Origin: an uncultured Acidobacteriota bacterium
Lineage (GTDB): Bacteria; Acidobacteriota; Thermoanaerobaculia; Thermoanaerobaculales; Sulfomarinibacteraceae
Assembly: GCA_963814875.1 (NCBI GenBank)
Contig: CAWFFJ010000019.1
Span: 67,482 to 131,481, forward strand
Direction of reading: 5' to 3'
DNA length: 64,000 nucleotides
A model generated the notes under the pieces. That model did not search any database. It was not told where the DNA came from and worked only from the letters and a program-made list of their open reading frames with translations. The translations under genes were made by a program, and so were the position numbers. How positions within the stretch are numbered: the first letter of the stretch is position 1; every line of letters begins with the position of its first letter. Shown here piece by piece: positions 9,578 through 47,273 of this stretch.

Positions 9578-10942
9578 CTACTGACCACCGCCGTCGAGGG
9601 CGGTCCGGGCCTGCTGCGCCGCCATCTCCGGGGACGGCAGGCCAAGTCGTGCGGACTCCGGCACCTCGCGCACCGAGGACGAGCGCAGCGCCGTCAACAC
9701 CTCACGGTGCTCCCGCCGGGCGCGCTGCGGCCACCCGAGACGCTCGAAGCAACCGGCAAGGAGCGCCCGGAACTGGAACAGCCCCGGTTCCAGGTAGAGC
9801 GCCGCCCGGTAGGCCTGGATCGCACCCTCCACATCTCCGCCCCGGTCCAGGCACACCCCGTGCAGCGCGCGCAGCACCGCATCGTCGGGCATTTGCACAA
9901 CCGCGGCCGTCGCGAGAGCGAGGGCCGCCTCCACGCTGCCCTCGGCGAGCGCTTCCACGATGGCCGGTCGAGGTGCCGGGGCAGGCTCCTCGACGTCGGG
10001 CGGTCTGCGGCGGCGCGGCGGTCGCTGTGGGCCGCCAGCTGCCGGCGGCGCCGGAGCAGGAGTCGGAACGAGCGCGCGATGCTCCCTCCTGGCGTCCGGG
10101 TTCCTGGTCCTGTAGGCAAAGCACCCGTCAAGATCGACCGCTTCAAGGCCGGTGTCGAGCCGGAGCAGCGATTCGCTCGGCCCGAGGAACAGCCAGCCGT
10201 CCGGCGCCAGCGCTGCGGCTACGGCGCGGACCACACGTTCCTGGGACTCTTCGCTAAAGTAGATGAGAACGTTGCGGAGAAACACGACGTCCCACGGCAC
10301 CCAGGGCAGCTCCAGCGGCTCCCGAACCAAGTTCAGCGGCCGGAAGTCGATTCGCTCCAGCAGCCGGCCGTCGAGCCGCCACCGGTCGCCCCGACGCTCG
10401 AAGTGCCGAGCGAGCATCTCTGGAGGAACCCTGGCCACTGCTCGAGCACCAAACAGGCCGGTTCGCGCCTCGTCAAGCGCCTGCTCGTCAACATCGGTGG
10501 CGAGAATGCGCCAGCCGCGCCCGACGAGACGGCGGGACTCACTCAGCACCACCGCGAGGGTGGCGGCCTCCTCCCCTCGCGCACATCCGGCCGACCAGAC
10601 CCGCAGCTCGGCTCCGGGCGGCCGACGGGCCAGCAGCTCGGGGAGAACAACCCCCTCGAGAACAGCGAACTGACGAGAGGCACGAAAGAGGTAGGACTCC
10701 TTGACAGTCAGGCGGTCGAGCAAGGCCCGCCATTCCTCGTGTGCGGGGCCGATCGCGAGGTATCTGACGTAGCTCTCGAGATCGCGACAGTGCGCGGCGT
10801 GGAAGCGTGCACGGGCGGCCGATTCGACCCGCGAGCGGTCGCGCGCCGGGACCACGATTCCGCTCGCCTCCTCGATCAGGCTGATCAGGCGATCGAGCGC
10901 ACCCTCACCTTTCGGAGGCTCGGCGCCTCGGTCGGGCCTCAT
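9578..10942 (-). CDS. cheR: chemotaxis protein methyltransferase CheR with C-terminal TPR region
   Basis: CheR signature regions are present (LTVKESYLFRASRQF; LRVWSAGCARGEEAATLAVVL; VVFLRNVLIYF). A C-terminal TPR-like tail follows. The start overlaps the cheB stop by 4 nt (ATGA). Confidence 0.9.
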   Translation of the reverse strand: MRPDRGAEPPKGEGALDRLISLIEEASGIVVPARDRSRVESAARARFHAAHCRDLESYVRYLAIGPAHEEWRALLDRLTVKESYLFRASRQFAVLEGVVLPELLARRPPGAELRVWSAGCARGEEAATLAVVLSESRRLVGRGWRILATDVDEQALDEARTGLFGARAVARVPPEMLARHFERRGDRWRLDGRLLERIDFRPLNLVREPLELPWVPWDVVFLRNVLIYFSEESQERVVRAVAAALAPDGWLFLGPSESLLRLDTGLEAVDLDGCFAYRTRNPDARREHRALVPTPAPAPPAAGGPQRPPRRRRPPDVEEPAPAPRPAIVEALAEGSVEAALALATAAVVQMPDDAVLRALHGVCLDRGGDVEGAIQAYRAALYLEPGLFQFRALLAGCFERLGWPQRARREHREVLTALRSSSVREVPESARLGLPSPEMAAQQARTALDGGGQ

Positions 10943-11949
10943 GGCCGCCCCGCGGCGAGCCGCGTGAGCAGCCGGCCGATAGCCTCCGGCTCGAGCTCGA
11001 GCAGCGCAGCCTCACGCTCCAGTGCGGCCCGCGGCATGCCGAAGACCGCACAGCTGTGTCGGTCCTGGGCCACGGTGAGCACGCCGGCTCGCCGCAGCTC
11101 CAGCATGCCTGTCACCCCGTCGTCGCCCATCCCGGTCAGGAGCACGGCCGCGACGTTGCCGGCCCCCAGCTCGAGGAACGACGAGAAGAGGAGATTGGCC
11201 GACGGTCGATGACCCCGGACCGGCGGCGTCAACGTGTCGTGGCGCAGCCTACCGTTCCGATCGATCACGAGGTGCGCTCCGGGCCGAGCCAGCCGAACCC
11301 GTGCCGAGGAGAGCGTCTCGCCGTCCTTGGCGACGCGGACATCGAGCCCGGTCTCGCGCGCCAGCCACTCTGCGAGCCCGGCCTCGAAGCCCGCAGCGAT
11401 GTGTTGGACGACCGCTACCGCGAGGGAAGTCCCCTTGAGCGCAGCGAGCATCGCGCGCAGCGCGACCGGACCGCCGGTGGAGGCGCCCACCGCGACGAAG
11501 CGTAGCCCGGCGGTCGCCGGCAGGCCCGACGTCTTCGGCCTCACGGCATCGCTGTCGGCGTCGGAGCGGGCGATCTGACGAACGACCTCTGCCAGGGACC
11601 GCCCGAGCTCCTGCCACTCGTCCGGCGTTTCCGGCTTGGCGAACACACCCAGTGCACCTCGGGTCAGGGTCTCGAATGCCAGGCGGGCGAAACGTCTCCG
11701 CCGCGGCGCGAGCACCAGGATGGGAGTCGGCCGTCTCCGAGTGATGGCCTCGGCGACAGCGACACCCCCGTCGGCGAGATCGGCGTCGAGAACCACCACG
11801 TCTGGCCGCAGCCTGGCGACCGCCCCCGCAGCCTCGGCAGGATCGCCGACGTCGCCCACCACGTCGACGCCCTCACCGGCGATCAGACGTCGCAGCAGGC
11901 TGCGGACCGTCGGCGACGCGCTGACCACGACAGCCCGGACCTCGCTCAT
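10939..11949 (-). CDS. cheB: protein-glutamate methylesterase CheB (receiver domain appears degenerate)
   Basis: The esterase triad contexts are present: AVGASTGGP, VVQHIAAGF and LTGMGDDG. The N-terminal receiver keeps LDADL and FAKP but has VVVSASP where the acidic DD pair normally sits. There is a 4-nt overlap with cheA. Confidence 0.9.
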   Translation of the reverse strand: MSEVRAVVVSASPTVRSLLRRLIAGEGVDVVGDVGDPAEAAGAVARLRPDVVVLDADLADGGVAVAEAITRRRPTPILVLAPRRRRFARLAFETLTRGALGVFAKPETPDEWQELGRSLAEVVRQIARSDADSDAVRPKTSGLPATAGLRFVAVGASTGGPVALRAMLAALKGTSLAVAVVQHIAAGFEAGLAEWLARETGLDVRVAKDGETLSSARVRLARPGAHLVIDRNGRLRHDTLTPPVRGHRPSANLLFSSFLELGAGNVAAVLLTGMGDDGVTGMLELRRAGVLTVAQDRHSCAVFGMPRAALEREAALLELEPEAIGRLLTRLAAGRP

Positions 11950-13937
11950 CGTGCCCCCAACCGGGCAACAACCGCGAGCAGCTCACGGGCCTCGAGGCCC
12001 TGCTTCGCCAGGTAGGCATCGGCACCTGCTGCGAGGCCCGCGCGGTGGTCCTCGGGGCGATTCCGGGTCGACACCACCACAACCGGCAGTTGGGCCAGCG
12101 CCGGGTTTGCACGGAGTGCTCGCGTGAGCTCGAGCCCGTTCATGTCGGGCATCTCGATGTCGGTGACTACACAGTCGAAGCCGCCGTCCTCGAGTGCACG
12201 CAGCGCTTCCTCCGCACTCCCGAACGAAGTCACCTCGAAGCCGCCGTCTTCGAGCACCCGGCGCAGCATCTCGCGGGTCACGCGCGAGTCATCCACCAAG
12301 AGCACTCGCACGGGTCCGGGCGCCTGCTGCGCCGCGACAACCTCGGAGCGCACGCCGGTACGGCTCGCGAGATCGTGGACCGAAACCACCGGCACCGGTC
12401 TCCCGGAAGCGAGCAGCGCCATGTCCGTAAAACAGGCGGGCGCTCCCAGGCCAGGCGGTAGCGGTCTCAGCACGACCTCCTCCTCGCCGACGACGGCGTC
12501 GACCGCGAGCGCTATCCGGACGCCGCCGAAGGAGACCTCCACGTGCACCTCGTCCCGCCCGCGCAACCCGGCCAAGAGCTCCCCCAGCGAGCGCACAGCT
12601 GGGGCCCCGCGGGCGGGCTCCGCAGGCGTCGCCGATCCCTTCGCGACGTGCCGGTAGGCGACAACGCCGGCCGCAGGTAGACCAACCTGAAACCCCGCCG
12701 CTGACACCACGAGGAGGCGGTCGGCGTGGCGGGTCACAGGCAACAGAAGGGTCACCTGGGTGCCGCGACCGGGCTCGGAGGCAAGCAGGACATCTCCTCC
12801 AACGTTGCGCACGGCCTCGGCGACGGCATCGAGGCCGACTCCACGCCCGGACACCGCCCCGGCGGCCTCTCGGGTCGTGAAGCCGGGGCGAAAGAGCAGC
12901 CGCAACGCGTCGTCGGGTCCGAGCGCGGCAAGCTCTTCGTCGCTCACCAGCCCGCGCGCCCGCGCCGCGTCGACGACGAGCTTCGGATCGATCCCGCGGC
13001 CGTCATCCTCGATCTCGAGCCGGACCCGCTCGCCTGCGCCGCCGGCAGTGAGACGCAGCCTGCCGGTAGCCGGCTTTCCGGCCGCGGTCCTTTCGTCGGC
13101 GGGCTCGATACCGTGATCGACCGCGTTCCGGACAAGGTGGAGCACCATTTCCTCGATCGCGGTGAGGACCCGCCGGTCGAGCTGTCCGCTGTCGGCGCTG
13201 ATCACGACCTCCACCTCTTTTCCCAGGGAGTGCGCGAGGTCGCGCGCGTGGCGTCCGACGGCAATGAGGAAAGGCTTGAGCGGCTGCAACTGGAGCCCGA
13301 TCAGAGCGTTGAGCTGACGGTCGACAAGCCGGCTCAGGCGACGCTCGCCGCCCTCGAGCTCAAACGCCGCCCGGCGCAGCAACGAGGCGAGCGTGGCGAG
13401 TACTTGCTCGGGGGACTCATCCGCCATGCCCCTCTCTGCAAGCCGTGAGAGCTCGAAGATCCGGTCCTTCACCCCACCCGCTGCCACCGCCAGGACCCGC
13501 ATCCTGGACGCCCGGTCGGCGAGCCGGTCGAGTACCGCCGCGCCCACCCGCATCTGCGTCTGATCCGATGGGGTACGGGATCCCTTGCGTAGCGCGGGCG
13601 GCGCTGCGTCGGTCGTTGCACTGCCGAGCTCGGGGACGGCGGCCTGCCGCCGTTGCGCCAAAAGCCCGGCCAGACCGTCGATCACTGCGACCAGGGAGAC
13701 GACCACCTCCGAGCCGCCCTTCTCGACCAGCGTCTCCGCATCGTGGCAGAGATCTGACATCTCGACCAGGCCCATCATCCGGCTCGCCCCTTTGAGGGCA
13801 TGAAGCTCGCGCTTAACGACCGCAGCCGCCTCGTCGTCCTCCGTGACCCGCGACGCGAGCTCGGCCAGGTGCTCGAGCCGGTCCTCCGCCTCGTCGAGAA
13901 AGAGCGGAATCAGATCGTCGAAGTCGCCTGCCTGCAT
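11946..13937 (-). CDS. cheA: hybrid CheA histidine kinase with C-terminal receiver domain
   Basis: An HPt motif (ELHALKGASRMMGL) is followed by HATPase motifs (HLVRNAVDHGIE, EDDGRGID, GRGVGLDAV) and a CheW-like P5 domain. A canonical REC follows (VLLVDDSRV...VVTDIEMPDMNG...VVVSTR...YLAKQ). Confidence 0.92.
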   Translation of the reverse strand: MQAGDFDDLIPLFLDEAEDRLEHLAELASRVTEDDEAAAVVKRELHALKGASRMMGLVEMSDLCHDAETLVEKGGSEVVVSLVAVIDGLAGLLAQRRQAAVPELGSATTDAAPPALRKGSRTPSDQTQMRVGAAVLDRLADRASRMRVLAVAAGGVKDRIFELSRLAERGMADESPEQVLATLASLLRRAAFELEGGERRLSRLVDRQLNALIGLQLQPLKPFLIAVGRHARDLAHSLGKEVEVVISADSGQLDRRVLTAIEEMVLHLVRNAVDHGIEPADERTAAGKPATGRLRLTAGGAGERVRLEIEDDGRGIDPKLVVDAARARGLVSDEELAALGPDDALRLLFRPGFTTREAAGAVSGRGVGLDAVAEAVRNVGGDVLLASEPGRGTQVTLLLPVTRHADRLLVVSAAGFQVGLPAAGVVAYRHVAKGSATPAEPARGAPAVRSLGELLAGLRGRDEVHVEVSFGGVRIALAVDAVVGEEEVVLRPLPPGLGAPACFTDMALLASGRPVPVVSVHDLASRTGVRSEVVAAQQAPGPVRVLLVDDSRVTREMLRRVLEDGGFEVTSFGSAEEALRALEDGGFDCVVTDIEMPDMNGLELTRALRANPALAQLPVVVVSTRNRPEDHRAGLAAGADAYLAKQGLEARELLAVVARLGAR

Positions 13938-13957
13938 GTCCCGCCGCCGCGCCGAGG

Positions 13958-15592
13958 TCAGATCCGGGTCCAGTTGCGGGCGTTGACGTCGAGACCGAGG
14001 ACACCAATCATCGAACCGTCATCGTCGCGAACACCCGCCGCGATGGTAAAGCAGGGATCGCCGGTCAGCAGCGACTCATAGAGCGGCGTCACCGCCGTTC
14101 GACCGGTCCGCATCACGGCCTGGAACCAGGGCCGCTCGGCATAGAGCTGCCCGACCATGACCGAGCCCGGCATCCGGTCCTCGCCGATGACGTCCCGGTT
14201 GGCGACATAGGCAACCATGCCGCCGCGGGTGTCGACAAGGTAGATCAGCTCCAGGTACGGGAGCGCCCGGAGGCCGTCCTCGAGACTGCCCTCGACCGCC
14301 TCGAGGTTGCCCGAGAAGTCCGCGAGTCCCTCGGCGAGGAGCAGGGCCTGGTGCTTCAGGGAGTGCACCGACTCGAGTCGGAATGACTGGCTGAGCAGCT
14401 GAATCGACAGCGCCAGGTGATTGAGGCGCTCGGCCGCACCGCTGAACTGGTTGAGGCCGCTGGCCATGCGCTGGATGACCTCGCTGACCTCGCGCAACGT
14501 CATCACCACCTGATCCGAGGCCGTGCGTTGCTCCTCGGTGGCGAGCGAGATTTCGCGCGCGGTACGTGCAGTCGTCTCGAGGGCGCTCCGCAGCTCTTCG
14601 ATCGCTGAATCGGCGGCGCGACTGCGCTCGAGCACCTCAGTGGCCGCCTTGCTGCCCTCCTCGGTCGCGACGACCATCGAACGGATGGCACTGGAGAACT
14701 CGTCGAGCAGCACCCGGACCGAGTCGACCGACTCGCGCGAGCGCTCGGCGAGGCGTCGCACCTCGGCCGCAACGACCCCGAACCGGTCGCCGTGGCTCCC
14801 CACCGCGGTCGCCTCGATAGCGGCGTTGAGGGCCAGCACGTGGGTCTCCTGTGCGATGTCGGTGATCAGGTCGAGCACTCGGTAGATTTCGCGCGACCGA
14901 CTCCCGAGAGTGTCGGCGCGAGTCGCGATCGCCTCCATGCGAAGACGCACCGCCTCGACCCCGTCCACCGCACCGCCGACCGCCTCTGCTCCGGCGTTGC
15001 CCTCACGCTCGGCATGTGCCGCAAGGTCGGCCTGGGCGGAGGCATTGGCGGCAATCTGCCCGGCGGTCCGGGCCAGCTCCTCCATGGTGGCGGTGATCTC
15101 GACTACCGCCGCCGCCTGCTGAGACGAACCCGAGGCGAGCTCGGCCGAGGTCTCCTGGACGACCTGGGCGGAGCTTGCGACCTCGACCGAGGACGCCTGG
15201 ATCTGCTGGATCAGGCCGCCCAGGGACCGAGCCGCGACCTCGACCGCCGAAGCGAGCTCGGCGGCGAGGTCTTCGGAGCGCTCCGCCATCGCCACCAGGT
15301 CGCCCTGACGCAGCTCGGCGAACGACGCCCGCAGCGCGGTGCTCTCACCGGCATGGCGCTCACGGTCCGCCTCGGCCTGCTGCTCCGCGCGGAGCTGCGG
15401 GCGCAGCACGAACATGATGTACACCGCAATAGCCAGTGCAGCAGAGGCAAGGAATGTCTGGACCAGCCACGCCCCACCATCGTCCAGGGTTTGCGCGGCG
15501 ACGACAACCACGGCCGCGATCACTAGCGCCGCCACCAGAACTGCGAAGCCCAGCAACGCTCGCGTCCTCGCCTGACTCGATTCACCCGCCAT
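13958..15592 (-). CDS. methyl-accepting chemotaxis protein with C-terminal Cache/PAS-like domain
   Basis: ORF 13958..15856 trimmed to ATG 15592, which is preceded by GGAGG. Two N-terminal TM helices are separated by an ~8-aa loop. The MCP hairpin-tip motif is present (ETHVLALNAAIEATAVGSHGDRFGVVAAEVRRLAERS). The C-terminal ~110 aa (LIYLVDTRGGMVAY...ERPWFQAVMRTG...MIGVLGLDVN) looks Cache-like. Confidence 0.85.
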   Translation of the reverse strand: MAGESSQARTRALLGFAVLVAALVIAAVVVVAAQTLDDGGAWLVQTFLASAALAIAVYIMFVLRPQLRAEQQAEADRERHAGESTALRASFAELRQGDLVAMAERSEDLAAELASAVEVAARSLGGLIQQIQASSVEVASSAQVVQETSAELASGSSQQAAAVVEITATMEELARTAGQIAANASAQADLAAHAEREGNAGAEAVGGAVDGVEAVRLRMEAIATRADTLGSRSREIYRVLDLITDIAQETHVLALNAAIEATAVGSHGDRFGVVAAEVRRLAERSRESVDSVRVLLDEFSSAIRSMVVATEEGSKAATEVLERSRAADSAIEELRSALETTARTAREISLATEEQRTASDQVVMTLREVSEVIQRMASGLNQFSGAAERLNHLALSIQLLSQSFRLESVHSLKHQALLLAEGLADFSGNLEAVEGSLEDGLRALPYLELIYLVDTRGGMVAYVANRDVIGEDRMPGSVMVGQLYAERPWFQAVMRTGRTAVTPLYESLLTGDPCFTIAAGVRDDDGSMIGVLGLDVNARNWTRI

Positions 15593-15641
15593 CACTCGTC
15601 CTCCACTCCCGCCTCCGCCCCGTCTCCTGGGGCGCCGCGAG

Positions 15642-16067
15642 TCAGCCCTCTCGTCGAAGCTCCATCGGGTCGAAAAGCCGAAGCTCTTCGCCCTCGACCC
15701 ACACCCGGCCGGCGGCTGCGGACTGTTCGCCCGGCACTGTCGCCTTGACCTCGATCGCCTCGTCCACCGCGAGGCCGAGCAGCTGCTCGCCGGCCTCACC
15801 GGCGATCCCAACGACGACCGCGAGCCGGTTCGGAGCGACCGTTCTCTCCGCCGCACCGATCAGCACACCGAGGTCCATCACCGGGAGCGGCTCGCCGCCG
15901 AGCTGCGCGAGCCCGGCGAACCGGGGCTCGGCGCCTGGCAGGGGAAACACCTGCAGGTCGCGGACAATCCTGCGGAGGCTCGCCACCGGCAGCGCGAGAC
16001 GACAACCACCGGCCCGTACCACCAGAACGTGGTGCGGCAGGACCTTCGGACCCGAGTCAGGACACAT
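15642..16067 (-). CDS. cheW: CheW-like coupling protein
   Basis: A single CheW-like domain (HHVLVVRAGGCRLALPVASLRRIV...FAGLAQLGGEPLPVMDLGVLIG...). The start is ambiguous between ATG 16067 and GTG 16100. Confidence 0.8.
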   Translation of the reverse strand: MCPDSGPKVLPHHVLVVRAGGCRLALPVASLRRIVRDLQVFPLPGAEPRFAGLAQLGGEPLPVMDLGVLIGAAERTVAPNRLAVVVGIAGEAGEQLLGLAVDEAIEVKATVPGEQSAAAGRVWVEGEELRLFDPMELRREG

Positions 16068-16119
16068 CTTCGGCTCAGGATAGCACCCGGAAAACAGCAC
16101 ACCGGGGCGCGGCGTCGCG

Positions 16120-16962
16120 TCAGGTCCGGGGCGCTGATGCCACCGAGCCCTCTGCGGCCGGGTCGACCTCCCAGGCGAGCTGGGAACCCCGGCTCGAGTG
16201 GGGGATCAGGAACACCGCCATCATCACCGCCCAGCCGAGCGCGACCGCGAGCCGGTTCGACCGCCGCCGGAGTGCGAGCACGGCAGCCGGCAACCACGCC
16301 AGGACCGCTGCCAGCGTCTTGGTGTCGGTGAGGTCCTCCCCCACCGGCCAGCCGGTCCAGAAGGCGCCGAAGGCGAAGCGCTGGACAATGGGGCCGAGCA
16401 CGAGACCCCCGATGACCATCAGCACGGCGGCGACGAGCACCGGCCCCCGGACCGAGCGGGGTCCCGGGCGCAGAGCGGCGAACAACGCCCGGGTGGCGAC
16501 CAGCATGCCCGTGAACATCGCCAGGATGTGCGGGATCAGGACCCTCGCGGGGACGGCCCCCTTGAAACGCGCCACCGCAGAGCTGTCGGCGGGCACCATC
16601 ACTTTCCGCGCGCCGTCGCCGAGCACCAGTCGGTACTCGACCTTTCCCGCCGGCGGCTGGTGTGGAACCTCGGCGCGCAGTCCCTGCGACGAGGCGGTCA
16701 TCAGCACCTCCTGCCATGGCTCCTCTGTCGGGAATCTCCGCCACAGCAGAGTCCCGGTCACACCAGCAGGGGCCGGAAGCCGAACGACCAACCCGCCGGC
16801 GCCGCCGTGGGAGCGCGGCAGCCGAAAGGCGACGTCATGACCGTGAAGCTCGACCCGCCCTGTGATCGGGTGCGTCGGACCCGTCAGACGCTGGAAGACG
16901 GCCAGGGCGAGCGTCAGAAGCAATGCCGCGAGCCACGGTGCAACGGCGCGAAACTGTCCCAC
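16120..16962 (-). CDS. hypothetical polytopic membrane protein (N-terminal extracytoplasmic beta-rich region plus ~4 TM helices)
   Basis: 280 aa. It has an N-terminal TM/signal (VAPWLAALLLTLALAVF) and several C-terminal hydrophobic helices. It is on the same strand as cheW and 20 nt upstream of it. No family is recognised. Confidence 0.55.
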   Translation of the reverse strand: MGQFRAVAPWLAALLLTLALAVFQRLTGPTHPITGRVELHGHDVAFRLPRSHGGAGGLVVRLPAPAGVTGTLLWRRFPTEEPWQEVLMTASSQGLRAEVPHQPPAGKVEYRLVLGDGARKVMVPADSSAVARFKGAVPARVLIPHILAMFTGMLVATRALFAALRPGPRSVRGPVLVAAVLMVIGGLVLGPIVQRFAFGAFWTGWPVGEDLTDTKTLAAVLAWLPAAVLALRRRSNRLAVALGWAVMMAVFLIPHSSRGSQLAWEVDPAAEGSVASAPRT

Positions 16963-16970
16963 GAGCCGGG

Positions 16971-16976
16971 ATTATA
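16971..16976 (-). promoter_or_regulatory. candidate -10 element (TATAAT) 8 nt upstream of the GTG start at 16962
   Basis: The minus strand reads ...gacccgTATAATcccggctcGTGgga. It is a perfect -10 consensus with no SD between it and the start. I found no convincing -35. Confidence 0.4.
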
Positions 16977-17014
16977 CGGGTCGAGGCCATCCCGCCGTGG
17001 TAGCCTCGCGCGGG

Positions 17015-17803
17015 ATGACCACGGCGTCGTCGCCTTCACCGTCCGCGATCGAGTCCCTCGCGCTGCGCCTGCCCGGCGACGATCGCAGCGACGACGAGCG
17101 ATGCCGCCTCGCCCGGCTGGTGATTCTGCTCGCCTGGCTGCCGCTACCGCCCTCCGGGCAGCGCCTGTTCCCCCTCTTCACGTCACTCCAGGACCTACTT
17201 CGCTCGTCCCTCCACAACGGCAACGGCGAGTCGATCGAGGAGGCATTCCTCGAGCTCTACTGCCACCTGCACATGCACGAGGCGCCCTATACCCCCAAGG
17301 AACGGCGGGTGGTTGACGCGAGCGGCGGCTACTGGGCGCATGCCGGAGGCATCAGCCCACTGCTGCGGGCGGGACGGTGGATCTCACCACAGACGGTGAG
17401 CGCCGACTACGGCGCCGGCAACGGCCTCCAGGGTCTGCTGCTGCAGTGGCTCGACCCCCACGCTCTGACGGTCCAGATCGAGATCTCGAGCCGGATGGTG
17501 GCGATCGGCCGAAGGCTCGCCGGTTGGCTCGGCATTCCTCCCGAGCGCCTGCGCTGGCTCGTGGCCGACGTCCGCGACGTGCCGCCGGTCGGTCTCGACT
17601 TCATCTACCTCTATCGCCCGCTCCGCCCGGAGGGGCCCGGCGACGCCTTCTACCGCAACTTCGCCGCCACCCTCGAGGCGCAGCCGCGGCCCGTGGTCGT
17701 GTTCAGTGTTGCGGACTGCCTGCGCGGCTACCTGTCCGATCGCTTCGAGCTGCTGTCCAGCGACGGTCACCTCACGTGCGTGCGCGGCCCTGTCAACCAC
17801 TGA
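17015..17803 (+). CDS. putative class I SAM-dependent methyltransferase-like protein
   Basis: ORF 16862..17803 trimmed to ATG 17015 (MTTASSPSPS...). It has a glycine-rich motif-I-like segment (SADYGAGNGLQGLLL) and an acidic motif-II-like segment (LVADVRDV). The assignment is weak. Confidence 0.45.
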   Translation: MTTASSPSPSAIESLALRLPGDDRSDDERCRLARLVILLAWLPLPPSGQRLFPLFTSLQDLLRSSLHNGNGESIEEAFLELYCHLHMHEAPYTPKERRVVDASGGYWAHAGGISPLLRAGRWISPQTVSADYGAGNGLQGLLLQWLDPHALTVQIEISSRMVAIGRRLAGWLGIPPERLRWLVADVRDVPPVGLDFIYLYRPLRPEGPGDAFYRNFAATLEAQPRPVVVFSVADCLRGYLSDRFELLSSDGHLTCVRGPVNH

Positions 17804-18808: not shown

Positions 18809-20911
18809 ATGCGACTCTCGTTACCCATTCGACTGCTCGCCGCCGTGGCGTGCACGATTCTGATCATCACCATGGGCCTGCCCGCTCTCGCGGCCGAGCC
18901 GACAGCGACCCCGACGGCGACACCGACCCCGACGCCGCCGCATGTCGGGAGCGGCGAGCTGCTGGTGACGGCACCCCGGCTCGAGGTCTCCCTTGCCGAG
19001 AACCCCGCAGCGACCACCGTGATCGGCGAGGAGACCCTGTCGGTGCTGCCGCGCGCCATCGCCGCCGAGGAGGCGCTGGCTCTCGTCCCCGGTGTCAAGG
19101 TCGACAATCAGGCCAACGGCGAGCGCGTCCACATGTCGATCCGCGGTCAGGGCATCCTGACCGAACGTGGCATCCGCGGCATCAAGATCCTGCTCGACGG
19201 GCTGCCGCTCAACGACCCGACTGGGTTCGCTCCCGATCTCTTCGACGTCGACTGGGCCACGGTCGACCGCATCGAGGTGCTGCGCGGACCCGCCTCGGCT
19301 CTGTACGGCGGAGGCGCCAACGGTGGCATCATTGCGATCCAGACCCGTGACGGCGTCGACGCCCGGGTCGGCGGCGAGGGCCTCGCGACCTTCGGCTCGA
19401 ACGGGTTCTGGAAGGTCCTCGGCGAGGCCAGCGGCAGCGGCGACGGCAACGACTGGCGGGTAAGCGCCTCGCGCACCGCGGGAGATGGGTACCGCGTCCA
19501 CACCGCCTTCGCCGCAACCAATCTGTACGGCAAGTTCCACGTCCTCTCGAGCGACGCCTTCTCGCTGACGGTGATCACCGCCGGTACCAAGTTCTTCAAC
19601 GAGAACGCTGAAGGCCTCAACATCGACCAGGTCCACGAGGACCCGACCCAACCCAACCCCGATGCCGAGGTCTTCAACGAGTACCAGCGCACCCAGCGCG
19701 GCACCCTCGGCCTCGTCGGCCACGTCGCCCTCACTGCCGACCAGGAGCTGACCTTCGCGGCCTGGTATCGCCAGACCCTGTGGCGCGAGTCGGTCCCATC
19801 GTCGGTCCAGCACCGCACCTACGGCACGCCGGGCGCGTACCTCCAGTACACGCTTCACACACCGATCGGCGGGCTCGACAACCACTTCAGCCTCGGCACC
19901 GACCTCGACTGGCAGACGATCGACGAGACCAAGCGCCCGAACCTCGGCGGGGCGGTCGAAGGCTCTGAGATACTCTCCGACCAGCTCATTCACCAGAAGG
20001 GCACCGCCTGCTACCTGCTCGACCGGCTCGAGCTCGCCGAGGGCTGGAGCCTGACCTTCGGCGCCCGCCACGACAGCATCGACAACCAGCTCCAAGACCA
20101 GCTGGTCACCGACGGCGTCGACCTGTCCGGCAGCGCCGACTTCAGCAAAACGACGGCGAGGGTCGGCGTGGCGTGGAGCGTGAGGGAGGACCTCGGCGTC
20201 TACGCCAGCTGGGGTCAGGGCTTCCTGCCGCCGGCGACCGAGGAGCTGGCCAACAACCCCGTGCAGCAGGGCGGCTTCAACCAGGGGCTCGTGCCGGCGA
20301 CCTCGGACGGCTTCGAGATCGGGGTCCGCGGGGCCGCGTCCCACACACTGTGGTACGACGTCACGGCCTTCCAGCTCTCGACGGACAACGACTTCGGCCG
20401 CTACCGGACGCCCGATCGGCCGCTCGAGACCTTCTACCGCAATGCCGGCTCGAGCAGCCGCTGGGGTCTGGAGAGCTCCCTCGTGTGGATGCCCTTCGAC
20501 GCCCTGGTCGTCCGCCTCTCCTACACCTACTCAGACTTCACCTACGACCGCGTCGAGGTCGGGACCGACGTCTACCACGACACCAAGCTGCCCAACTCTC
20601 CCGAGCACATGACGGCCCTTGACCTCGCCTACACGCTGCTGCCCAGGTTGACCCTCGGCACCACCGTCAGCACCATGACCCGTGCCTACATCGACGCCAC
20701 CAACGCGACCTGGATCGGCGGCTACACCCTGGTCGATGCACGGCTTGGTTGGGGTTTTGCGATGTCAAGCTGCACCGGCGAGCTGCTGGTGTCGGCACGC
20801 AACCTGACCGACAAGGCGTACATTGCGTTTACCGAACCCGACCCCGACGGCAACTCCTACCAACCTGGCACCAGCCGAGAGCTCTTCGCCGGCGTTTCGC
20901 TGCATTTCTAG
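18809..20911 (+). CDS. TonB-dependent outer-membrane receptor
   Basis: A signal peptide is followed by a plug domain (LLVTAPRLE..., VPGVKVDNQANGERVHMSIRGQG, RIEVLRGPASALYGGGANGGII). A long beta-barrel ends in the typical aromatic terminus ...ELFAGVSLHF. An SD GGAGG lies upstream. Confidence 0.92.
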   Translation: MRLSLPIRLLAAVACTILIITMGLPALAAEPTATPTATPTPTPPHVGSGELLVTAPRLEVSLAENPAATTVIGEETLSVLPRAIAAEEALALVPGVKVDNQANGERVHMSIRGQGILTERGIRGIKILLDGLPLNDPTGFAPDLFDVDWATVDRIEVLRGPASALYGGGANGGIIAIQTRDGVDARVGGEGLATFGSNGFWKVLGEASGSGDGNDWRVSASRTAGDGYRVHTAFAATNLYGKFHVLSSDAFSLTVITAGTKFFNENAEGLNIDQVHEDPTQPNPDAEVFNEYQRTQRGTLGLVGHVALTADQELTFAAWYRQTLWRESVPSSVQHRTYGTPGAYLQYTLHTPIGGLDNHFSLGTDLDWQTIDETKRPNLGGAVEGSEILSDQLIHQKGTACYLLDRLELAEGWSLTFGARHDSIDNQLQDQLVTDGVDLSGSADFSKTTARVGVAWSVREDLGVYASWGQGFLPPATEELANNPVQQGGFNQGLVPATSDGFEIGVRGAASHTLWYDVTAFQLSTDNDFGRYRTPDRPLETFYRNAGSSSRWGLESSLVWMPFDALVVRLSYTYSDFTYDRVEVGTDVYHDTKLPNSPEHMTALDLAYTLLPRLTLGTTVSTMTRAYIDATNATWIGGYTLVDARLGWGFAMSSCTGELLVSARNLTDKAYIAFTEPDPDGNSYQPGTSRELFAGVSLHF

Positions 20912-20959: not shown

Positions 20960-21084
20960 CGACTCGGGAAGGTCCCTGCGGTCACACATCCTGATTCAGA
21001 ATCTCACCTTTATTGCCAGCCCTCTGTAACTGTCTCGACTTGCGGCGTACCATCACTTTGTACTGATACGGCTCAGCCGAGCCG

Positions 21085-23991
21085 ATGGAGGCCAGCATGC
21101 TACTCGGTCGCCGCACCCTGACCCACGTCCTGCGCCGTGTTCCGGTCGTGCTCATGGCCACCCTTGCCGCCGCCTCACCCGCGTCCGCCGGCTGGCGCGT
21201 CATTGCCTGGAACGACCTCGGCATGCATTGCATGGACTCGAGCTACGCGGTCTTCTCCATTCTGCCGCCGTACAACAACCTCCACGCCCAGATCGTCGAC
21301 GCGTCGGGGCGGTTGGTGACGTCTCCAGGGACCCTCAGCGTGACCTGGGAGGCGGTCGCGGACGCGAGCGGCTCGCGCAACACGACCTCTGTCGGCAAGA
21401 CCGACTTCTGGAGCTTCGTCGCCGCCCTTTACGGAGCCGACCTCGCCCCTGATCATGGGCTCGCCGGCTCGGCCATGCCCGGCACCGGCAACACACCGCA
21501 GCCGATGTCGTTCGATGTGGGTGCGCACCAGTTCGTCGCATCTGGCATCCCGATCACCGCGTACGACGACAGTGGGCGGAAAAACGCCTATCCGATGGTG
21601 CGGGTCGTGGTCCGCGACGGATCCGGGGCCATCCTGGCATCGACCGATGTCGTGCTGCCGATCTCGGATGAGATGGACTGCCGGGCGTGCCACGGCTCCG
21701 GAAGCTCAGCGGCGGCCCAGCCTGCTGCCGGGTGGGTGACCGACCCCGATCCCGACCGCGACTATCGGCTCAACATCCTTCGTCTGCACGACGATCTCGA
21801 GGGATGGCGGCCCCGATTCGCCTCCGCCCTCACCGAGGCCGGCTACTCCGCCGACGGGCTGTATGCGACTGTCACCGCGCAGGGAACGCCGGTGCTGTGC
21901 GCCCGATGTCATGGCTCCAACGCCCTGCCCGGCACCGGGCTCGCCGACATCCCACCCCTCACCCACTCCGTGCACGGCAAGCACGCGCAGGTCGAGGATC
22001 CGGTCAATGGGCTGACCCTCGACGCCAGCAGCAACCGCTCGGCGTGCTACCGCTGCCACCCTGGCAGCGAGACGCGGTGTCTGCGCGGTGCGATGGGCTC
22101 CGCGGTCGCCGCCGACGGCAGCCTCGCAATCCAGTGCCAGAGCTGTCACGGCTCGATGAGCGCGGTGGGCGGCAACCGCGAAGGCTGGCTCGACGAGCCC
22201 GGGTGCGGAGGCTGCCACACGGGCACTGCCACCGCCAACAGCGGCCAGATCCGCTACACCTCGGCGCTCCTTGCCGACGGCTCTCGACGACAGCCCGCTG
22301 ATTCCACCTTCGCAACCAACCCCGACACGCCGAGCGCCGGCTTCTCGCTCTACCGGTTTTCCGACGGCCACGGCGGGCTCGCCTGCGAGGCATGCCACGG
22401 CTCCACCCATGCCGAGTACCCCAGCCTCGACGCCAACGACAACGCCCAGAGCCTCGCCGTCCAGGGCCATGTCGGATCCATCGGCGACTGCACCGCCTGC
22501 CACGCCTCGTCGCCGTCGACCACCTCCGGCGGTCCGCACGGCATGCACCCGGTCGGACAGGACTGGGTGAGCAGGCACGGCGACGCCGCCGAGCACTCGA
22601 GCTCGGCATGCCAGGTGTGCCACGGGGCGGACTCGCGCGGCACCGTGCTGTCTCGGGCCCTCGGACCGCGCAGCTTGTCGACGAAGTGGGGAAGCCGGAC
22701 CTTCTTCCGCGGCGCCACCATCGGCTGCTACACCTGCCACAATGGGCCATCGAGCGAGAGCGGCAACCCCAACCACCCTCCTACCGTGGCCAGTGCCTCG
22801 ATCTCGACCACTCACGACACGCCCGTGACCGTAACGCTCTCCGCCACCGACGCCGATGGCGACTCGCTCACGGTGCGGATCGTGACCCAGCCCCGGCACG
22901 GCACCGTCGCGCTGAGCGGCCGGTCCGCGACCTACCTCCCAGAGGCTGGGTTCGGCGGAACCGACAGCTTCACCTTCGCGGCCTGGGACGGCGCCTCGGA
23001 CTCCAACCTCGCAACCGTCTCCGTTTCCGTGTCGGCCGCGGCGCTCGCCGTCAGCGCGGCGGCGAGCCCGTCGAGCGGCCAGACGCCGCTCGAGGTACAC
23101 TTCAGCGCCACGGTCTCCGGGGGCACCGAGCCATACAGCTACGACTGGGACTTCGGAGACGGCAGCGCTCACGCCGTCACCTCGAACCCGACCCACACCT
23201 ACACCGCCGACGGGACCTTCCCGGTGAGCGTGTCAGTGCGGGACGCGGTCGACATCACAGCGAGCGACAGCCACCTGGCGGTCACGGTCGGCTCCACCGC
23301 GGTGTGGCGCTACCTGGTGCCCGCCGCGGCCCACAACACAGGGGTCGGCGGAACCCTGTGGCAGACCGACCTGGTGGCCGTGGTGCCGGGGTCGCAGTCG
23401 GCGAACCTCGAAATGGAGTTCCGCTTCCCGGGTGGGCAGCGGACCGCCGTCGAGGTCCTTGCCGCAGGCTCGACCGTGGTGTGGACCAACGCCGCCGAGA
23501 GCCTGTTCGGGCTCGCCCCCTCCGAGCCCGCCGCCGGCGTCATCGAGGTCACCTCCGACGCGCCCGTCGTGCTCAGCGCGCGGACCTTCAACTCGACCGC
23601 GACCGGGACCTTCGGGCAATCCATGCCGGTCCTCGACGAGGCCGCCGCGCTGCACGCCACCGAAGAGGGCGTGCTGCCGCACATCGTCGCCAACGCGAAG
23701 TTCCGGTCGAATCTCGGGCTGGTCAACCTTGGCAACGCCCCCTGCACGGCCACCGTCCGGCTGTTCGGTGGCTCGGGCACGCCGCTCGGACAGTCGATCT
23801 CCGAGACCGTGTCGGCTCGGGGTTGGACGCAGCTCAACAACATCGGCGATCTCGTGGGCGCGGGCCAGATCGAGATCGCCTACGCGACGGTGAGCGTCGA
23901 CACCCCTGGCGGTGCCATGTGGGCCTACGTCTCGCTGATCGACCAGGCCACCGGCGATCCCACCACGATCCCAGTCGTCCGCCGGCCCTGA
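21085..23991 (+). CDS. secreted nonaheme c-type cytochrome fused to cadherin-like Ig, PKD and an unassigned C-terminal domain
   Basis: It has a signal peptide (VPVVLMATLAAASPASAGW). There are nine CxxCH motifs: CRACH, CARCH, CYRCH, CQSCH, CGGCH, CEACH, CTACH, CQVCH and CYTCH. A cadherin-like repeat (VTVTLSATDADGDSLTVRIVTQPRHGTV...DSFTFAAWDG) and a PKD signature (PLEVHFSATVSGG...YDWDFGDGS...HTYTADGTFPVSVSV) follow. The last 232 aa are unassigned. Confidence 0.88.
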   Translation: MEASMLLGRRTLTHVLRRVPVVLMATLAAASPASAGWRVIAWNDLGMHCMDSSYAVFSILPPYNNLHAQIVDASGRLVTSPGTLSVTWEAVADASGSRNTTSVGKTDFWSFVAALYGADLAPDHGLAGSAMPGTGNTPQPMSFDVGAHQFVASGIPITAYDDSGRKNAYPMVRVVVRDGSGAILASTDVVLPISDEMDCRACHGSGSSAAAQPAAGWVTDPDPDRDYRLNILRLHDDLEGWRPRFASALTEAGYSADGLYATVTAQGTPVLCARCHGSNALPGTGLADIPPLTHSVHGKHAQVEDPVNGLTLDASSNRSACYRCHPGSETRCLRGAMGSAVAADGSLAIQCQSCHGSMSAVGGNREGWLDEPGCGGCHTGTATANSGQIRYTSALLADGSRRQPADSTFATNPDTPSAGFSLYRFSDGHGGLACEACHGSTHAEYPSLDANDNAQSLAVQGHVGSIGDCTACHASSPSTTSGGPHGMHPVGQDWVSRHGDAAEHSSSACQVCHGADSRGTVLSRALGPRSLSTKWGSRTFFRGATIGCYTCHNGPSSESGNPNHPPTVASASISTTHDTPVTVTLSATDADGDSLTVRIVTQPRHGTVALSGRSATYLPEAGFGGTDSFTFAAWDGASDSNLATVSVSVSAAALAVSAAASPSSGQTPLEVHFSATVSGGTEPYSYDWDFGDGSAHAVTSNPTHTYTADGTFPVSVSVRDAVDITASDSHLAVTVGSTAVWRYLVPAAAHNTGVGGTLWQTDLVAVVPGSQSANLEMEFRFPGGQRTAVEVLAAGSTVVWTNAAESLFGLAPSEPAAGVIEVTSDAPVVLSARTFNSTATGTFGQSMPVLDEAAALHATEEGVLPHIVANAKFRSNLGLVNLGNAPCTATVRLFGGSGTPLGQSISETVSARGWTQLNNIGDLVGAGQIEIAYATVSVDTPGGAMWAYVSLIDQATGDPTTIPVVRRP

Positions 23992-34632: not shown

Positions 34633-34661
34633 TTGACTTCCGCTTCCGGGATAGCTAGGAT
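34633..34661 (+). promoter_or_regulatory. candidate promoter of the act operon (TTGACT-17-TAGGAT), 8 nt before ATG 34670
   Basis: gcTTGACTtccgcttccgggatagcTAGGATtcattctcATG. This is a near-consensus -35 with 17-nt spacing. No SD is present. Confidence 0.5.
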
Positions 34662-34669
34662 TCATTCTC

Positions 34670-35325
<656 letters not shown>

Positions 35326-35338
<13 letters not shown>

Positions 35339-38300
35339 ACCGACGCCAGTCCGCCCGCACCTCCTGGCGGAGCCTCGACGAGTTGGCCCAGACGCCGGAG
35401 TTTCAGCAGATGGTGAGCCGGGAGTTCCCCAACGACTCCTGGGACACCCTGCCTCCGGCGACCCGAAGGCAGTTCCTGAAGGTCATGGGCGCCTCGCTCG
35501 CGCTCGCCGGGCTCACCGCATGCCGCTGGCCGGAGGAGGAGATCGTCCCCTTCGCCCACCGCCCCGAGGACCGGGTGCCGGGCGAACCACGGCGGTTTGC
35601 CACCTCGTACGAGCTCGGCGGCGCCGCCTTCGGGCTCCTGCTGACCAGCAACGACGGTCGGCCGACGAAGGTCGAAGGCAACCCGCTCCACCCGGACAGC
35701 CTCGGCGCCGCCACGGCACAGCTCCAGGCAACGGTGCTCGAGGTCTGGGACCCCGACCGCAGCCGGACGCCGGTAGAACGCCGCAGTGGTCAGTCGGTTC
35801 CATCCGGCTGGACCCAGTGGGACGCGTTTGCCGGCGACCACTTCGCCGAGCTGCGCAAGGCTGGAGGCCGCGGCCTGGCGGTGCTCGCCGAGCCGTCGTC
35901 GTCTCCCACCCTGGCGAGGCTGCGGAGCCGGCTCCGCGAGGTGATGCCCGAGGCCGCGTGGATCGAGTACCAGGCGATCTCCCGCGATGCCGAGCGCGAG
36001 GCCACCCGGATGGCGTTCGGCCGGCCGCTGCGGCTGATCCCACGGCTTGACCGGGCGCGGGTGGTGGCCTGCATCGACGCCGACCCGCTGGTCGACCACC
36101 CGGCGGCGGTCGCGCTCGCCCGTCAGTTCGCCGGCCGCCGTCAGCCCGACCCGGCCAGGTTCAACCGGCTGTGGGTCGCGGAGGGCGGCTACACCAGCAC
36201 CGGAGCAGTCGCCGACCACCGGCTCGCTCTCGCAGCGAGCGCCGCGCCCCGCCTTCTCGCCGAGCTCGCCCGCGAGCTGGAATCGGTCCACGGAATCACA
36301 CTGCCCCGCGAGGCCGCGGGCCTCGCGAAAAGAACTCGAGCAGTACGCGCGAGCGAGACCGAGCACGCATTCATCGCCGGGCTCGCGCGCGACCTCGCCG
36401 CTGCGCGCGGCGAAGGCGTGATCCTCGTCGGCACTCGGCAGCCGCCCGCGGCGATCGCGCTCTCGCTGGCGCTGAACCATGCACTAGGTAACATCGGCGC
36501 AGGGGTGGCCCTGGTCGAGGACCCCGAGCCGGATCGTCCAACCCATCTCGAGGCGATCGCCCAACTGGCACGGCGTCTCGAGGCCGGTGAGGTCGGCACG
36601 CTCGTCGTGATCGGAGGCAACCCCGCCTACGATGCACCGGCCGATCTGAAGTTCGCGGACGCCATCGCCAAGGCAGCGACGGTCGTTCGGGTCAGCCTCA
36701 CCGCCGACGAAACCGCCGCCCTCGCCAACTGGCATCTCCCGATGGCGCACGCTTACGAGGCGTGGGGGGACGGACGCGCCTGGGACGGCACCCTGACCCT
36801 GCGCCAGCCCCTGATCGAACCCCTCTACGGCGGCCGCAGCGACCTCGAGCTGGTCGCCGCACTGCTCGGTGAAGCCAAGGTCAAGGGCTACGACCTCGTC
36901 CGGACAACCCACCTTTCGGCTGGCGGGCCCGACTTCGAGCGCTGGTGGCGGCGCGCGCTGCATGACGGCGTCGTCGACGGCACCGCGTGGTCCGAGGTCA
37001 CGCGGGCGGCCCTCGACCCGGAGGGCCTGGATGCTGCGGCGACCGCCTACGACACCTTGCTCACCGCTCCCGGCCCCTCGGCCCAGGCCCCGGAGCTCGT
37101 CCTGGTCGCCGACCCTCGGGTCCGCGACGGGCGCTTCGCCAACCTGGGCTGGCTCCAGGAGCTGCCCGATGCGTTCACCAAGATCACCTGGGACAACGCG
37201 CTCCTGGCGTCGCCCGCAACCGCCCGCGAGCTCGGCCTGGCCGACGGCGAGGTGGTCGCGGTCTCCTCCGGTGGGGTCTCGGTCGAGCTGCCGCTGTACG
37301 TCGTTCCCGGCGCTGCGCGCTACTGCCTCACCGCGTCCCTCGGCTACGGACGCACCCGGGCTGGCGAGGTCGGCACCGGCGTCGGCGTCGATCTCTACCC
37401 GATGCGCACCACCGCCCGGCCACACCTGCTCACCAGCGTGTCGGTCCGCGGCACCGGCCGCCGAGAACGGCTTGCCACGACCCAGGATCACTTTGCGATC
37501 GACCGCCGCGGCTTCGAGGCGCGCAACCTGCGCATTGGCGAGCTCGCCCGGGAAGCGTCTCTCGACGAGTACCTCGCCGACCCCGAGGTCATCCACCACG
37601 AGGACCACCATCCGCCCCTGGTCTCGCTGTGGCGCGAGCACACCTACGAGGGCGAGCAGTGGGGCATGGCGATCGACCTCGGCAGCTGTATCGGCTGCAA
37701 CGCCTGCATCGTCGCCTGCCAGGCGGAGAACAACATCCCGGTGGTCGGCCGCCAGCAGGTCATCAACCAGCGCGAGATGCAGTGGATCCGCCTCGACCGC
37801 TACTTCCGCACCCCCGAGGGTCTCGGCCCCGACGAGGTCGACGACGCCGAGGTCGCCTTCCAGCCGGTCGCATGCGTCCAGTGCGAGATGGCCCCGTGCG
37901 AGCAGGTGTGCCCGGTCGCGGCGACCCAGCACACCAACGACGGCCTCAACGCGATGGTCTACAACCGCTGCGTCGGCACCCGCTACTGCTCCAACAACTG
38001 CCCGTTCAAGGTCCGGCGGTTCAACTTCTTCAACTACCACAAGCATCTGACCACGATCGAGCAGATGCAGTACAACCCCGACGTCACAGTCCGCTCGCGC
38101 GGCGTGATGGAGAAGTGCACCTACTGCGTCCAGCGCATCGAGGCCGTGCGCATCACGGCAAAGAACGACCGTCGCCCGATCGCGGACGGTGAGATCGTCC
38201 CCGCCTGCGCCCAGACCTGTCCGAGCCGGGCGATCGTGTTCGGCAACCTCAACGACCCGACCAGCGAGGTCGCGCGTCTGCGCGAGGACCACCGCGCGTA

Positions 38301-38403
38301 CGCCACCCTCGCCGAGCTCAACATCAAGCCGCGCACCCACTACCTCGCGCGCCTGCGCAACCCGGCCGGCGGTGCCGGGCACCACGGGGAGGAGTCGGCG
38401 TGA
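35326..38403 (+). CDS. actB: Alternative Complex III subunit ActB (molybdopterin-oxidoreductase-like plus 4Fe-4S domain, fused B1-B2)
   Basis: ORF 35176..38403 trimmed to ATG 35326. It has a Tat signal ([21 protein letters not shown]). The C-terminal ferredoxin-like Cys clusters are [37 protein letters not shown] and CTYC.... Confidence 0.92.
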
Positions 38404-41109: not shown

Positions 41110-41124
41110 GGGGGAAGGCAGACC

Positions 41125-42345: not shown

Positions 42346-42356
42346 CGGGAGGGACG

Positions 42357-42653: not shown

Positions 42654-42684
42654 AGCGGTTCAAGAAGGGTAGGAGTTTGGCCAG

Positions 42685-43530: not shown

Positions 43531-43692
43531 CCGCCGTGGAATGGAATCGCGGAACTGGGGTTTGAGTCAGCACAATCGAGCGACCGCAGCGCGACCCGGG
43601 CCGAGGTGGCCGGTGAGCCATGAACCGGCCTCGGCGCCGCCTGAAGTGGGCCGGCTCGCGGTCACACCACAGGGGAAGAGGTCTGGGGGGTC

Positions 43693-44688: not shown

Positions 44689-44702
44689 CCGGGGGAGGAA
44701 GC

Positions 44703-47263: not shown

Positions 47264-47273
47264 GGAGACGACG

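Follow-up and report, generated by a model that had tools for sequence, protein, structure and literature searches.

What does a chemotaxis-like pathway sense, and what does it control, when no output gene stands beside it? The question is raised by a compact che operon in a 64-kb stretch of DNA from an uncultured Acidobacteriota bacterium (contig CAWFFJ010000019.1; the whole analysed stretch is called the window here, and its G+C content is ~69%). The locus occupies positions 9578–16962. Open reading frame (ORF) coordinates and Pfam domains give its order on the minus strand, from 16962 down to 9578, as an uncharacterized membrane protein, CheW, a methyl-accepting chemotaxis protein (MCP, the receptor), a hybrid of the kinase CheA with a fused receiver (CheA-REC), CheB, and CheR with a TPR tail. 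A first-pass annotation, made from the sequence, had proposed the same gene order and had named the membrane protein as an obvious candidate for input or output; two features that appear in the Pfam matches, a Cache-like domain at the C terminus of the MCP and the TPR tail carried by CheR, were missing from its description. Gene content, domain architecture, fold, conservation and synteny could be established directly, and they lead to a different emphasis. The che operon is real and clade-conserved in uncultured Acidobacteriota, and on the best reading of the locus it is a Che-like pathway of a known kind, set apart by a receptor that is anchored in the membrane and has its Cache-type sensor at the C terminus, in the cytoplasm. 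Taken as a whole, the interpretation developed below is of a chemosensory module of a Thermoanaerobaculia-type clade, with a Cache-sensing receptor, a non-motility output and a membrane protein that is an inherited neighbour; we give it a little better than an even chance of being right in all these parts.

The receptor carries a Cache-type domain behind its signalling hairpin

Hydropathy analysis places two transmembrane (TM) helices at the N terminus of the receptor and no membrane segment after them. A HAMP-like segment follows, and then a signalling hairpin with arms of ~140 residues each around a tip near S266; methylation-type EE/QQ sites are present in both arms. Measured from the GDL motif of the HAMP segment to the point where the hairpin ends, the receptor exceeds a model of the 36H receptor Tar by 27 residues and equals a model of Pseudomonas CtpM in length. 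By comparison with these two models, its length is consistent with ~40 heptads, the number expected for the 40H class of Alexander and Zhulin (2007), whose signalling hairpin is said to have 20 heptads per arm.

The domain that follows the hairpin has a recognizable fold. Its AlphaFold2 model (mean predicted local distance difference test score, pLDDT, 86.5) finds its best PDB matches, by Foldseek, in the dCache ligand-binding domains of Tlp3, KinD, CtaA, PctA/B/C and DctB, with E ~2e-8 and a template-modelling score of ~0.68. In amino-acid-binding dCache domains, residues in an R-x-W...Y...D arrangement hold the carboxyl and amino groups of the ligand, and the full dCache_1AA ligand motif we take to be Y121, R126, W128, Y129, Y144 and D173 in PctA numbering. 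In the window receptor, R487-P-W489-F490 aligns with the RPWY segment of PctA, PctB and Tlp3, Y505 with the tyrosine of T-x-P-Y (Y144) and D535 with the aspartate of G-x-D (D173). Four of these residues (R487, W489, Y505 and D535) are invariant across 41 aligned members of the receptor family. Because no membrane segment follows the signalling hairpin, this Cache/PDC domain is predicted to be, and on the hydropathy profile must be, cytoplasmic.

Receptors of this kind are uniform in length: among the matches listed, more than 100 homologues at ~60% identity measure 543–544 residues, and almost always 543. Their conservation is uneven along the chain. The median identity to the window MCP is low in the TM hairpin (27%) and the HAMP-like segment (34%) and higher in the signalling region (73%) and the C-terminal domain (60%). 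On this profile the hairpin in the membrane looks to be an anchor and the C-terminal domain a sensor. The likely sensor of the pathway is thus the receptor's own cytoplasmic C-terminal Cache-type domain, and not the neighbouring membrane protein.

The extreme C terminus of the MCP reads ...RNWTRI, with N537 and W541 invariant in the family, and resembles the NWETF pentapeptide that tethers CheR. In the AlphaFold2 model this end forms the short helix that closes the Cache fold and would not be a flexible tail.

Conservation of the operon and of its membrane-protein neighbour

Two sets of relatives were compared. The first was anchored on the membrane protein and comprised 80 genome loci, the 21 closest of them from Acidobacteriota and 20 of those informative; the second was anchored on the MCP by seven exact-protein look-ups, each giving a locus of ~21 kb. 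The closest genome relative is an Acidobacteriota metagenome-assembled genome (MAG; locus L001) with 74–90% amino-acid identity over the region, and the next are MAGs labelled Thermoanaerobaculia/Thermoanaerobaculales and Candidatus Sulfomarinibacteraceae. The genes for CheW, MCP and CheA, usually followed by those for CheB and CheR, lie directly downstream of the membrane gene on the same strand in 18 of the 20 informative Acidobacteriota loci. In the MCP-anchored set the membrane gene is present in five of seven loci (L162, L163, L165, L166 and L168). Judged by thousands of metagenomic homologues, the operon is conserved in a clade of uncultured Acidobacteriota that is abundant in sediments and soils. 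A metagenome scan with the MCP alignment was uninformative on reverse synteny, its patterns having fallen on the universal receptor tip and returned only generic MCPs (≤39% identity).

The usual order in relatives is guaA, a gene that we call X, the membrane gene and the che cluster; beyond these come an RNase-H-like gene, encoded on the opposite strand, and then scpA and scpB. Gene X encodes 438–470 residues and is 80–92% identical among relatives (L002–L021, L081 and L162–L168); it is absent from the window. Its product is distantly related to cyclic 2,3-diphosphoglycerate synthetase (PDB 9sxb, E 2e-5) and belongs to no Pfam or NCBIfam family. Two relatives carry an insertion between X and the membrane gene that encodes a hybrid of two PAS domains, a histidine kinase and a receiver (L010, 1653–3680; L016, 7858–9816), one of them with a che cluster downstream and the other without.

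The expectation of the first-pass annotation that the membrane gene would be syntenic upstream of orthologous clusters therefore holds for the 18 and the five loci counted above, and fails for L081 and L167, where cheW comes directly after X in a cluster that is complete in all other respects. The receptors of these two loci are only 58% identical, so that the absence of the membrane gene does not go back to one recent event. The reverse situation is also found. In the remaining 59 of the 80 loci, which come from Bacteroidota, Ignavibacteriota, Chlorobiota, Fimbriimonadales, KSB1, Vicinamibacteria, Holophagales and others, mostly other phyla, the membrane gene has no che genes of the cluster within 10 kb, and it also occurs without che genes in two relatives, L010 and L015. 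In L015 it still adjoins X, which suggests that the X–membrane-gene pair predates the che cluster. Because intact che clusters exist without it and it exists without che genes, the membrane gene is better read as a neighbour inherited with a guaA–X–membrane-gene backbone than as an obligatory component of the pathway.

A true partnership, in which the membrane protein would be a co-sensor relaying a periplasmic or membrane signal to the receptor through TM contacts, or a target of the phosphorylated CheA receiver, is an alternative that we judge unlikely. Accessory membrane proteins are known to pass signals to intramembrane-sensing kinases, and such a role would suit a receptor that has no periplasmic domain of its own beside a protein with a strongly conserved periplasm-facing site. 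The co-orientation of the gene directly upstream of cheW in most loci, with a gap that shrinks to 0–50 nt in many relatives, fits a functional link as well, and the junction with cheW survives in the window, L001 and L166, where guaA and X have been lost upstream and purH lies downstream. This has to be set against the complete clusters of L081 and L167, the wide distribution of the family without che genes, the earlier origin suggested by L015 and the finding that the TM hairpin is the least conserved region of the receptor; a conserved promoter-like element and a weak hairpin also separate the membrane gene from cheW (see below). The che-free family members, the two loci without the gene, the 27% identity of the TM hairpin and the receptor's own sensor domain together weaken the earlier view of the membrane protein as an obvious candidate for input or output.

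A widespread membrane protein family with a conserved periplasmic face

The membrane protein itself matched nothing in Pfam, NCBIfam or PDB sequence searches. Its AlphaFold2 model (mean pLDDT 85) has one TM helix, a beta-sandwich formed by residues 33–133 and four more TM helices; judged by the Arg-rich loops at 165–171 and 232–236, the sandwich would be periplasmic, and so would a Trp-rich loop and the tail at the C terminus. A Foldseek search of the PDB with the sandwich returned generic FN3/Ig folds only. More than 900 homologues are present in one database and 1018 representative clusters in another, nearly all of them stand-alone proteins of 265–300 residues. When 315 family sequences drawn from many phyla are compared, every conserved polar residue faces the periplasm in the model, as do the conserved His/Trp/Asp/Lys motifs of the window protein. 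The conserved polar residues are Q24, R25, R50, Q102, K107, Y110, R132, H145, Q194, D210, D213, K215, H255, S256 and S260, and their placement points to a possible site for ligand binding or catalysis at the surface of the membrane.

The family shares with CcmC the order of a His, two TM helices, a Trp-rich loop, two TM helices and a second His. Kinship with the haem-handling WWD proteins (CcmC/CcsA) was rejected on comparison by hhalign with Escherichia coli CcmC, which gave probabilities of 0.2% with 23 sequences and 0.04% with 315. Fusions were of no more help as a clue to role, since the only ones found, to a TonB receptor and to an acetyl-CoA hydrolase, both look like gene-call artefacts. 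The first of these is P0376 (1012 residues), in which a family member is fused, or mis-called, with a CarboxypepD_reg-Plug-TonB-dependent receptor. The window has a TonB-dependent receptor gene of its own at 18809–20911 (plus strand), at a distance of 1.9 kb on the upstream side of the membrane gene; the parallel with P0376 is probably a coincidence. The membrane gene keeps no constant neighbour from one phylum to the next: it stands with rhomboid, AlgH and GH3 genes in Bacteroidales and with guaA and X in Acidobacteriota.

A pathway most likely devoted to something other than flagellar motility

Pfam scans of the called ORFs of the 64-kb window found no flagellar, pilus, GGDEF, EAL, HD-GYP or stand-alone receiver genes, and a receiver-domain hidden Markov model (HMM) run over all six frames of the window recovered only the receivers of CheA and CheB. 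These scans bear out the earlier statement that the window has no stand-alone CheY and no flagellar, pilus or GGDEF gene. CheY, CheZ, CheV, CheC, CheD, CheX, fli, flg, mot and pil genes were likewise missing from the ORFs scanned in the window, and the same genes and GGDEF were missing from the called genes of the seven MCP-anchored loci. The genes among which the cluster is embedded (guaA, X, scpAB or purH) are housekeeping and not motility genes. A literature search returned nothing specific on chemotaxis or motility in Thermoanaerobaculia/Sulfomarinibacter, nor on receptors with a C-terminal Cache domain.

The Hpt domain and P3 of the kinase are joined by a linker of ~34 residues (95–128), too short for a P2 domain, and the absence of P2 noted in the first-pass annotation is thereby confirmed. 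The fused receiver keeps all its catalytic residues, the DD pair included (Table 1), and its best PDB matches are CheY proteins. The receiver of CheB (11614–11937, minus strand) is altered, its acidic Mg2+ pocket having been lost in the window (VVSAS) and in L001 (IVGSS); most relatives have ADRS (canonical DD), and the window and L001 retain the downstream Asp and Lys. Phospho-control of CheB may thus be weakened or lost in the lineage of the window and L001. In CheR, the TPR region at the C terminus spans ~9683–9967.

Could the operon still serve ordinary motility, flagellar or by type IV pili, with CheY and the motor genes encoded elsewhere and the fused receiver acting as a phosphate sink only? 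The core set of CheA, CheW, MCP, CheB and CheR is complete, and the core of the kinase scores about equally against E. coli CheA (139 bits) and the Wsp-type kinase of Ralstonia (147 bits), so that it does not discriminate between the two. CheA-REC hybrids are known from the flagellar systems of Campylobacterota as well, for example CheAY2 of Helicobacter. Several relatives, moreover, have a stand-alone receiver gene of 123–126 codons ~9 kb upstream of the che cluster (L003, 353–733, minus strand; L081, 376–747, minus strand, beside an lspA-like gene; also L006 and L012). This receiver has no counterpart in the window. The scans described above found no cheY, auxiliary che, fli, flg, mot or pil gene in the window or in the seven loci, the single receptor has a sensor predicted to be cytoplasmic, and neither a multi-Hpt kinase of the ChpA type nor PilG/PilH genes are present. 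Adaptation genes have also been lost in several lineages, both CheB and CheR being absent from L003, L006, L012, L016 and L168 and CheB alone from L014 and L020. We therefore hold a motility function to be unlikely, and consider that the pathway is most likely not devoted to flagellar motility.

A proposed route from metabolite to output

On the interpretation that we prefer, of a Cache-sensing module with a non-motility output, the receptor would be anchored by its poorly conserved two-helix hairpin, with almost no periplasmic loop. Given that the Arg-x-Trp...Tyr...Asp residues are retained in a cytoplasmic domain, we infer that the input is a cytoplasmic amino-acid-like metabolite, which would be read by the C-terminal Cache/PDC domain. 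Receptor, CheW and the P5 domain of CheA would form the usual core complex, in which CheA would autophosphorylate at His46 and then transfer the phosphate to the intact receiver fused to it. Adaptation of the receptor at its EE/QQ sites would fall to CheR-TPR and CheB, and the fused receiver would most likely serve as a gate or as a phosphate sink. The non-motility output, which appears not to be encoded nearby, would be reached through an unlinked response regulator or through protein contacts of the CheA receiver itself.

Several observations weigh against this interpretation. The last ~135 residues of the MCP match Pfam dCache_1 at 41.2 bits, below the curated cut-off of 45, and the ligand motif is imperfect, with Phe in place of Tyr129 and an uncertain equivalent of PctA Y121. 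The negative results on output genes cover the 64-kb window and the MCP-anchored loci, and genes for flagella, pili or a CheY may lie elsewhere in the genome; the flagellar hybrids of the CheAY2 kind show that a CheA-REC architecture is compatible with swimming. The losses of CheB and CheR mean that adaptation is not universally kept. Both the persistence of the membrane gene beside cheW in loci with rearranged flanks and the short gaps between the two belong here as well.

That the system is a self-contained metabolite sensor, whose sole output is the CheA-fused receiver acting on a co-transcribed membrane protein and possibly on X, strikes us as quite improbable; if the receiver did act in this way, it would represent a new type of Che-like output and would give a multi-phylum membrane family its first function.

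Che-like pathways with unknown outputs are common and poorly understood, and an orphan cluster is in itself no surprise to a specialist. Cache domains, for their part, are usually described as extracellular. The analysis also sets the operon apart from an unannotated membrane family of ~1000 representative clusters in many phyla, whose conserved periplasm-facing site merits a study of its own. The receptor architecture and this family are thus two concrete, testable leads.

Gene boundaries, transcription signals and neighbouring genes

The positions of the genes, domains and signals are collected in Table 1. The 4-nt ATGA overlaps reported earlier between cheA and cheB (11946–11949) and between cheB and cheR (10939–10942) agree with the ORF coordinates. 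For cheW the most likely start is the ATG at 16067, which is conserved in L001 and L166; the GTG at 16100 is not conserved. The MCP starts at the ATG at 15592, which has GGAGG upstream, and not at the GTG of the long ORF at 15856.

Table 1. Genes, domains and candidate signals of the che locus, with positions in the window
Feature	Position	Strand	Basis or remark
Membrane protein, 280 aa	16120–16962	minus	Uncharacterized family; no Pfam/NCBIfam match
TATAAT, perfect	16971–16976	minus	8 nt before membrane-gene GTG 16962
Extended -10-like TGcTATCCT	16077–16085	minus	9 nt ahead of conserved cheW ATG
cheW, 141 aa from conserved ATG	15642–16067	minus	Pfam CheW, E 1.4e-14; longest ORF reaches GTG 16100
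MCP, 544 aa	13958–15592	minus	Pfam MCPsignal and dCache_1
MCP TM hairpin, loop ~8 residues	15401–15559	minus	Hydropathy
MCP HAMP-like segment	15218–15400	minus	Sequence
MCP signalling hairpin, ~40 heptads (by length comparison), tip near S266	14369–15217	minus	Length comparison, hydropathy
MCP C-terminal Cache/PDC domain	13961–14368	minus	Pfam dCache_1 (sub-threshold), AlphaFold2, Foldseek, motif alignment
CheA-REC hybrid, 663 aa	11946–13937	minus	Pfam Hpt, HATPase_c, CheW-like, Response_reg
CheA Hpt with His46	13656–13913	minus	Pfam; H-x-LKG
CheA P3-P4-P5	12348–13553	minus	Aligns with Thermotoga CheA P3-P5 (PDB match)
CheA receiver with D548/D549, D593, T624, K645	11970–12305	minus	PDB matches to CheY
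CheB, REC and methylesterase	10939–11949	minus	Pfam
CheR, methyltransferase and TPR	9578–10942	minus	Pfam CheR 6.8e-47; TPR_16 and TPR_19 matches weak

The TATAAT that the first-pass annotation placed 8 nt ahead of the GTG of the head gene is there in the sequence, and it is the sole perfect TATAAT on either strand of the window. The arrangement is kept as TATAAT-N8-GTG in L001 and as TATACT-N8-ATG in the more distant L166, and its spacing suggests a leaderless or near-leaderless transcript of the membrane gene. A second element, TGnTAnnnT-N9-ATG, is kept ahead of cheW in the window, L001 and L166 within a spacer that otherwise diverges, and it is closely preceded by a weak hairpin that has a short run of T residues (16098–16115, minus strand). 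In the window this element, TGcTATCCT, is possibly a separate che promoter, and the two arrangements together hint at leaderless transcripts in the source organism. The membrane gene is possibly co-transcribed with the che genes; the conserved element and the hairpin, which are pattern matches only, count against a simple form of such co-transcription.

Divergent from the membrane gene lies an ORF at 16862–17803 (plus strand; start probably near 17015) that has no Pfam or NCBIfam match. It contains S-adenosylmethionine-dependent methyltransferase-like motifs (DYGAGNG) and is conserved in L001 and L166.

Farther away, the window encodes a 975-residue protein at 21067–23991 (plus strand) that combines an MtrC/MtrF-like multihaem cytochrome with Big_9/cadherin-like and PKD domains. 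An alternative-complex-III-like set occupies 34655–48200 (plus strand), with cytochrome c7, a molybdopterin/Fe-S subunit and NrfD followed by SCO1 and an operon for cytochrome c oxidase (COX2, COX1, COX3 and COX4). Two further signalling loci are a Tll0287-like sensor with HAMP followed immediately by a Ser/Thr protein kinase (50517–53001, plus strand) and a HisKA/HATPase kinase (55877–57442, minus strand) adjoining a 421-residue ORF without a family match.

Relation to known chemosensory systems

By its architecture the operon fits the non-motility, alternative cellular function (ACF) type of Che-like pathway. The ACF class (Wuichet and Zhulin 2010; MiST) has a core of CheA, CheW, MCP, CheB and CheR and lacks the auxiliary proteins CheC, CheD, CheV, CheX and CheZ, and Pfam scans of the cluster and the window found none of the five. 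The first-pass annotation had found the pattern to fit this class; the fit stands as far as the architecture goes (hybrid CheA-REC, no P2, no auxiliaries), and it gains nothing from the kinase core, which is about as near to E. coli CheA as to Wsp-type kinases. The closest annotated CheA-REC hybrids in a plasmid collection belong to Wsp-type clusters, with 36–37% identity over P4-P5-REC. We rejected class assignment by best hit, as this ranking is driven by the fused receiver and the kinase cores score nearly equally; with a core that does not discriminate, class membership is not established.

The likeness to Wsp systems (Pseudomonas WspA-F and WspR, and the clusters of Ralstonia and Deinococcus grandis) lies in the hybrid CheA-REC without P2, in a CheR that is much extended at its C terminus, and in the presence of CheB, CheW and one dedicated receptor within the cluster. 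The Ralstonia cluster consists of an MCP, CheW, a methyltransferase, a second CheW, the hybrid kinase and a diguanylate-cyclase regulator, and that of D. grandis also ends in a diguanylate-cyclase regulator. Unlike these, the acidobacterial operon has one cheW and not two (WspB and WspD), no REC-GGDEF regulator of the WspR kind in the window or among the called genes of the MCP-anchored loci, and a receptor that lacks a periplasmic domain and has a C-terminal cytoplasmic Cache-like domain instead.

The Che-like cluster on plasmid p2 of Azospirillum lipoferum, one of the top matches, shares the Che-like core, the hybrid kinase and CheB/CheR, and it carries a transcription-factor regulator. In this cluster, as in Myxococcus Che3 and the Che3-type system of Rhodospirillum centenum, a Che-like core with a hybrid kinase and CheB/CheR controls something other than swimming. 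Clusters of these kinds encode an output regulator, either a transcription factor or an extra hybrid kinase, beside the core; the window differs from them and from Azospirillum p2 in that no such regulator was found beside its core. From the type IV pilus (Tfp, Pil-Chp) class, which has PilI/PilJ besides ChpA and PilG/PilH, it differs in having a CheA with a single Hpt domain, where ChpA has multiple, and in having no stand-alone receivers of the PilG/PilH type. The flagellar (F) classes have a cognate CheY, as a rule within the cluster, together with flagellar genes in the genome; in the 64 kb of the window neither a CheY nor a flagellar gene was found.

For the receptor, the nearest sensors in fold are the dCache_1AA domains of PctA/B/C, Tlp3, CtaA and Mlp24, with which it shares the PDC fold and the R-P-W-[YF], Y and D positions. 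The window domain differs from these in being a single module of ~135 residues and not a double one, and in following the signalling domain in the cytoplasm, where theirs is extracytoplasmic and lies between two TM helices. In topology it comes closest to type IIIc of Lacal et al., in which the sensor is reportedly C-terminal to the signalling domain, as in Helicobacter TlpD with its CZB domain. Like TlpD, the window receptor would carry its sensor behind the signalling hairpin, in the cytoplasm; unlike TlpD, it combines this arrangement with a sensor of the Cache/PDC fold and with a hairpin that anchors the receptor in the membrane.

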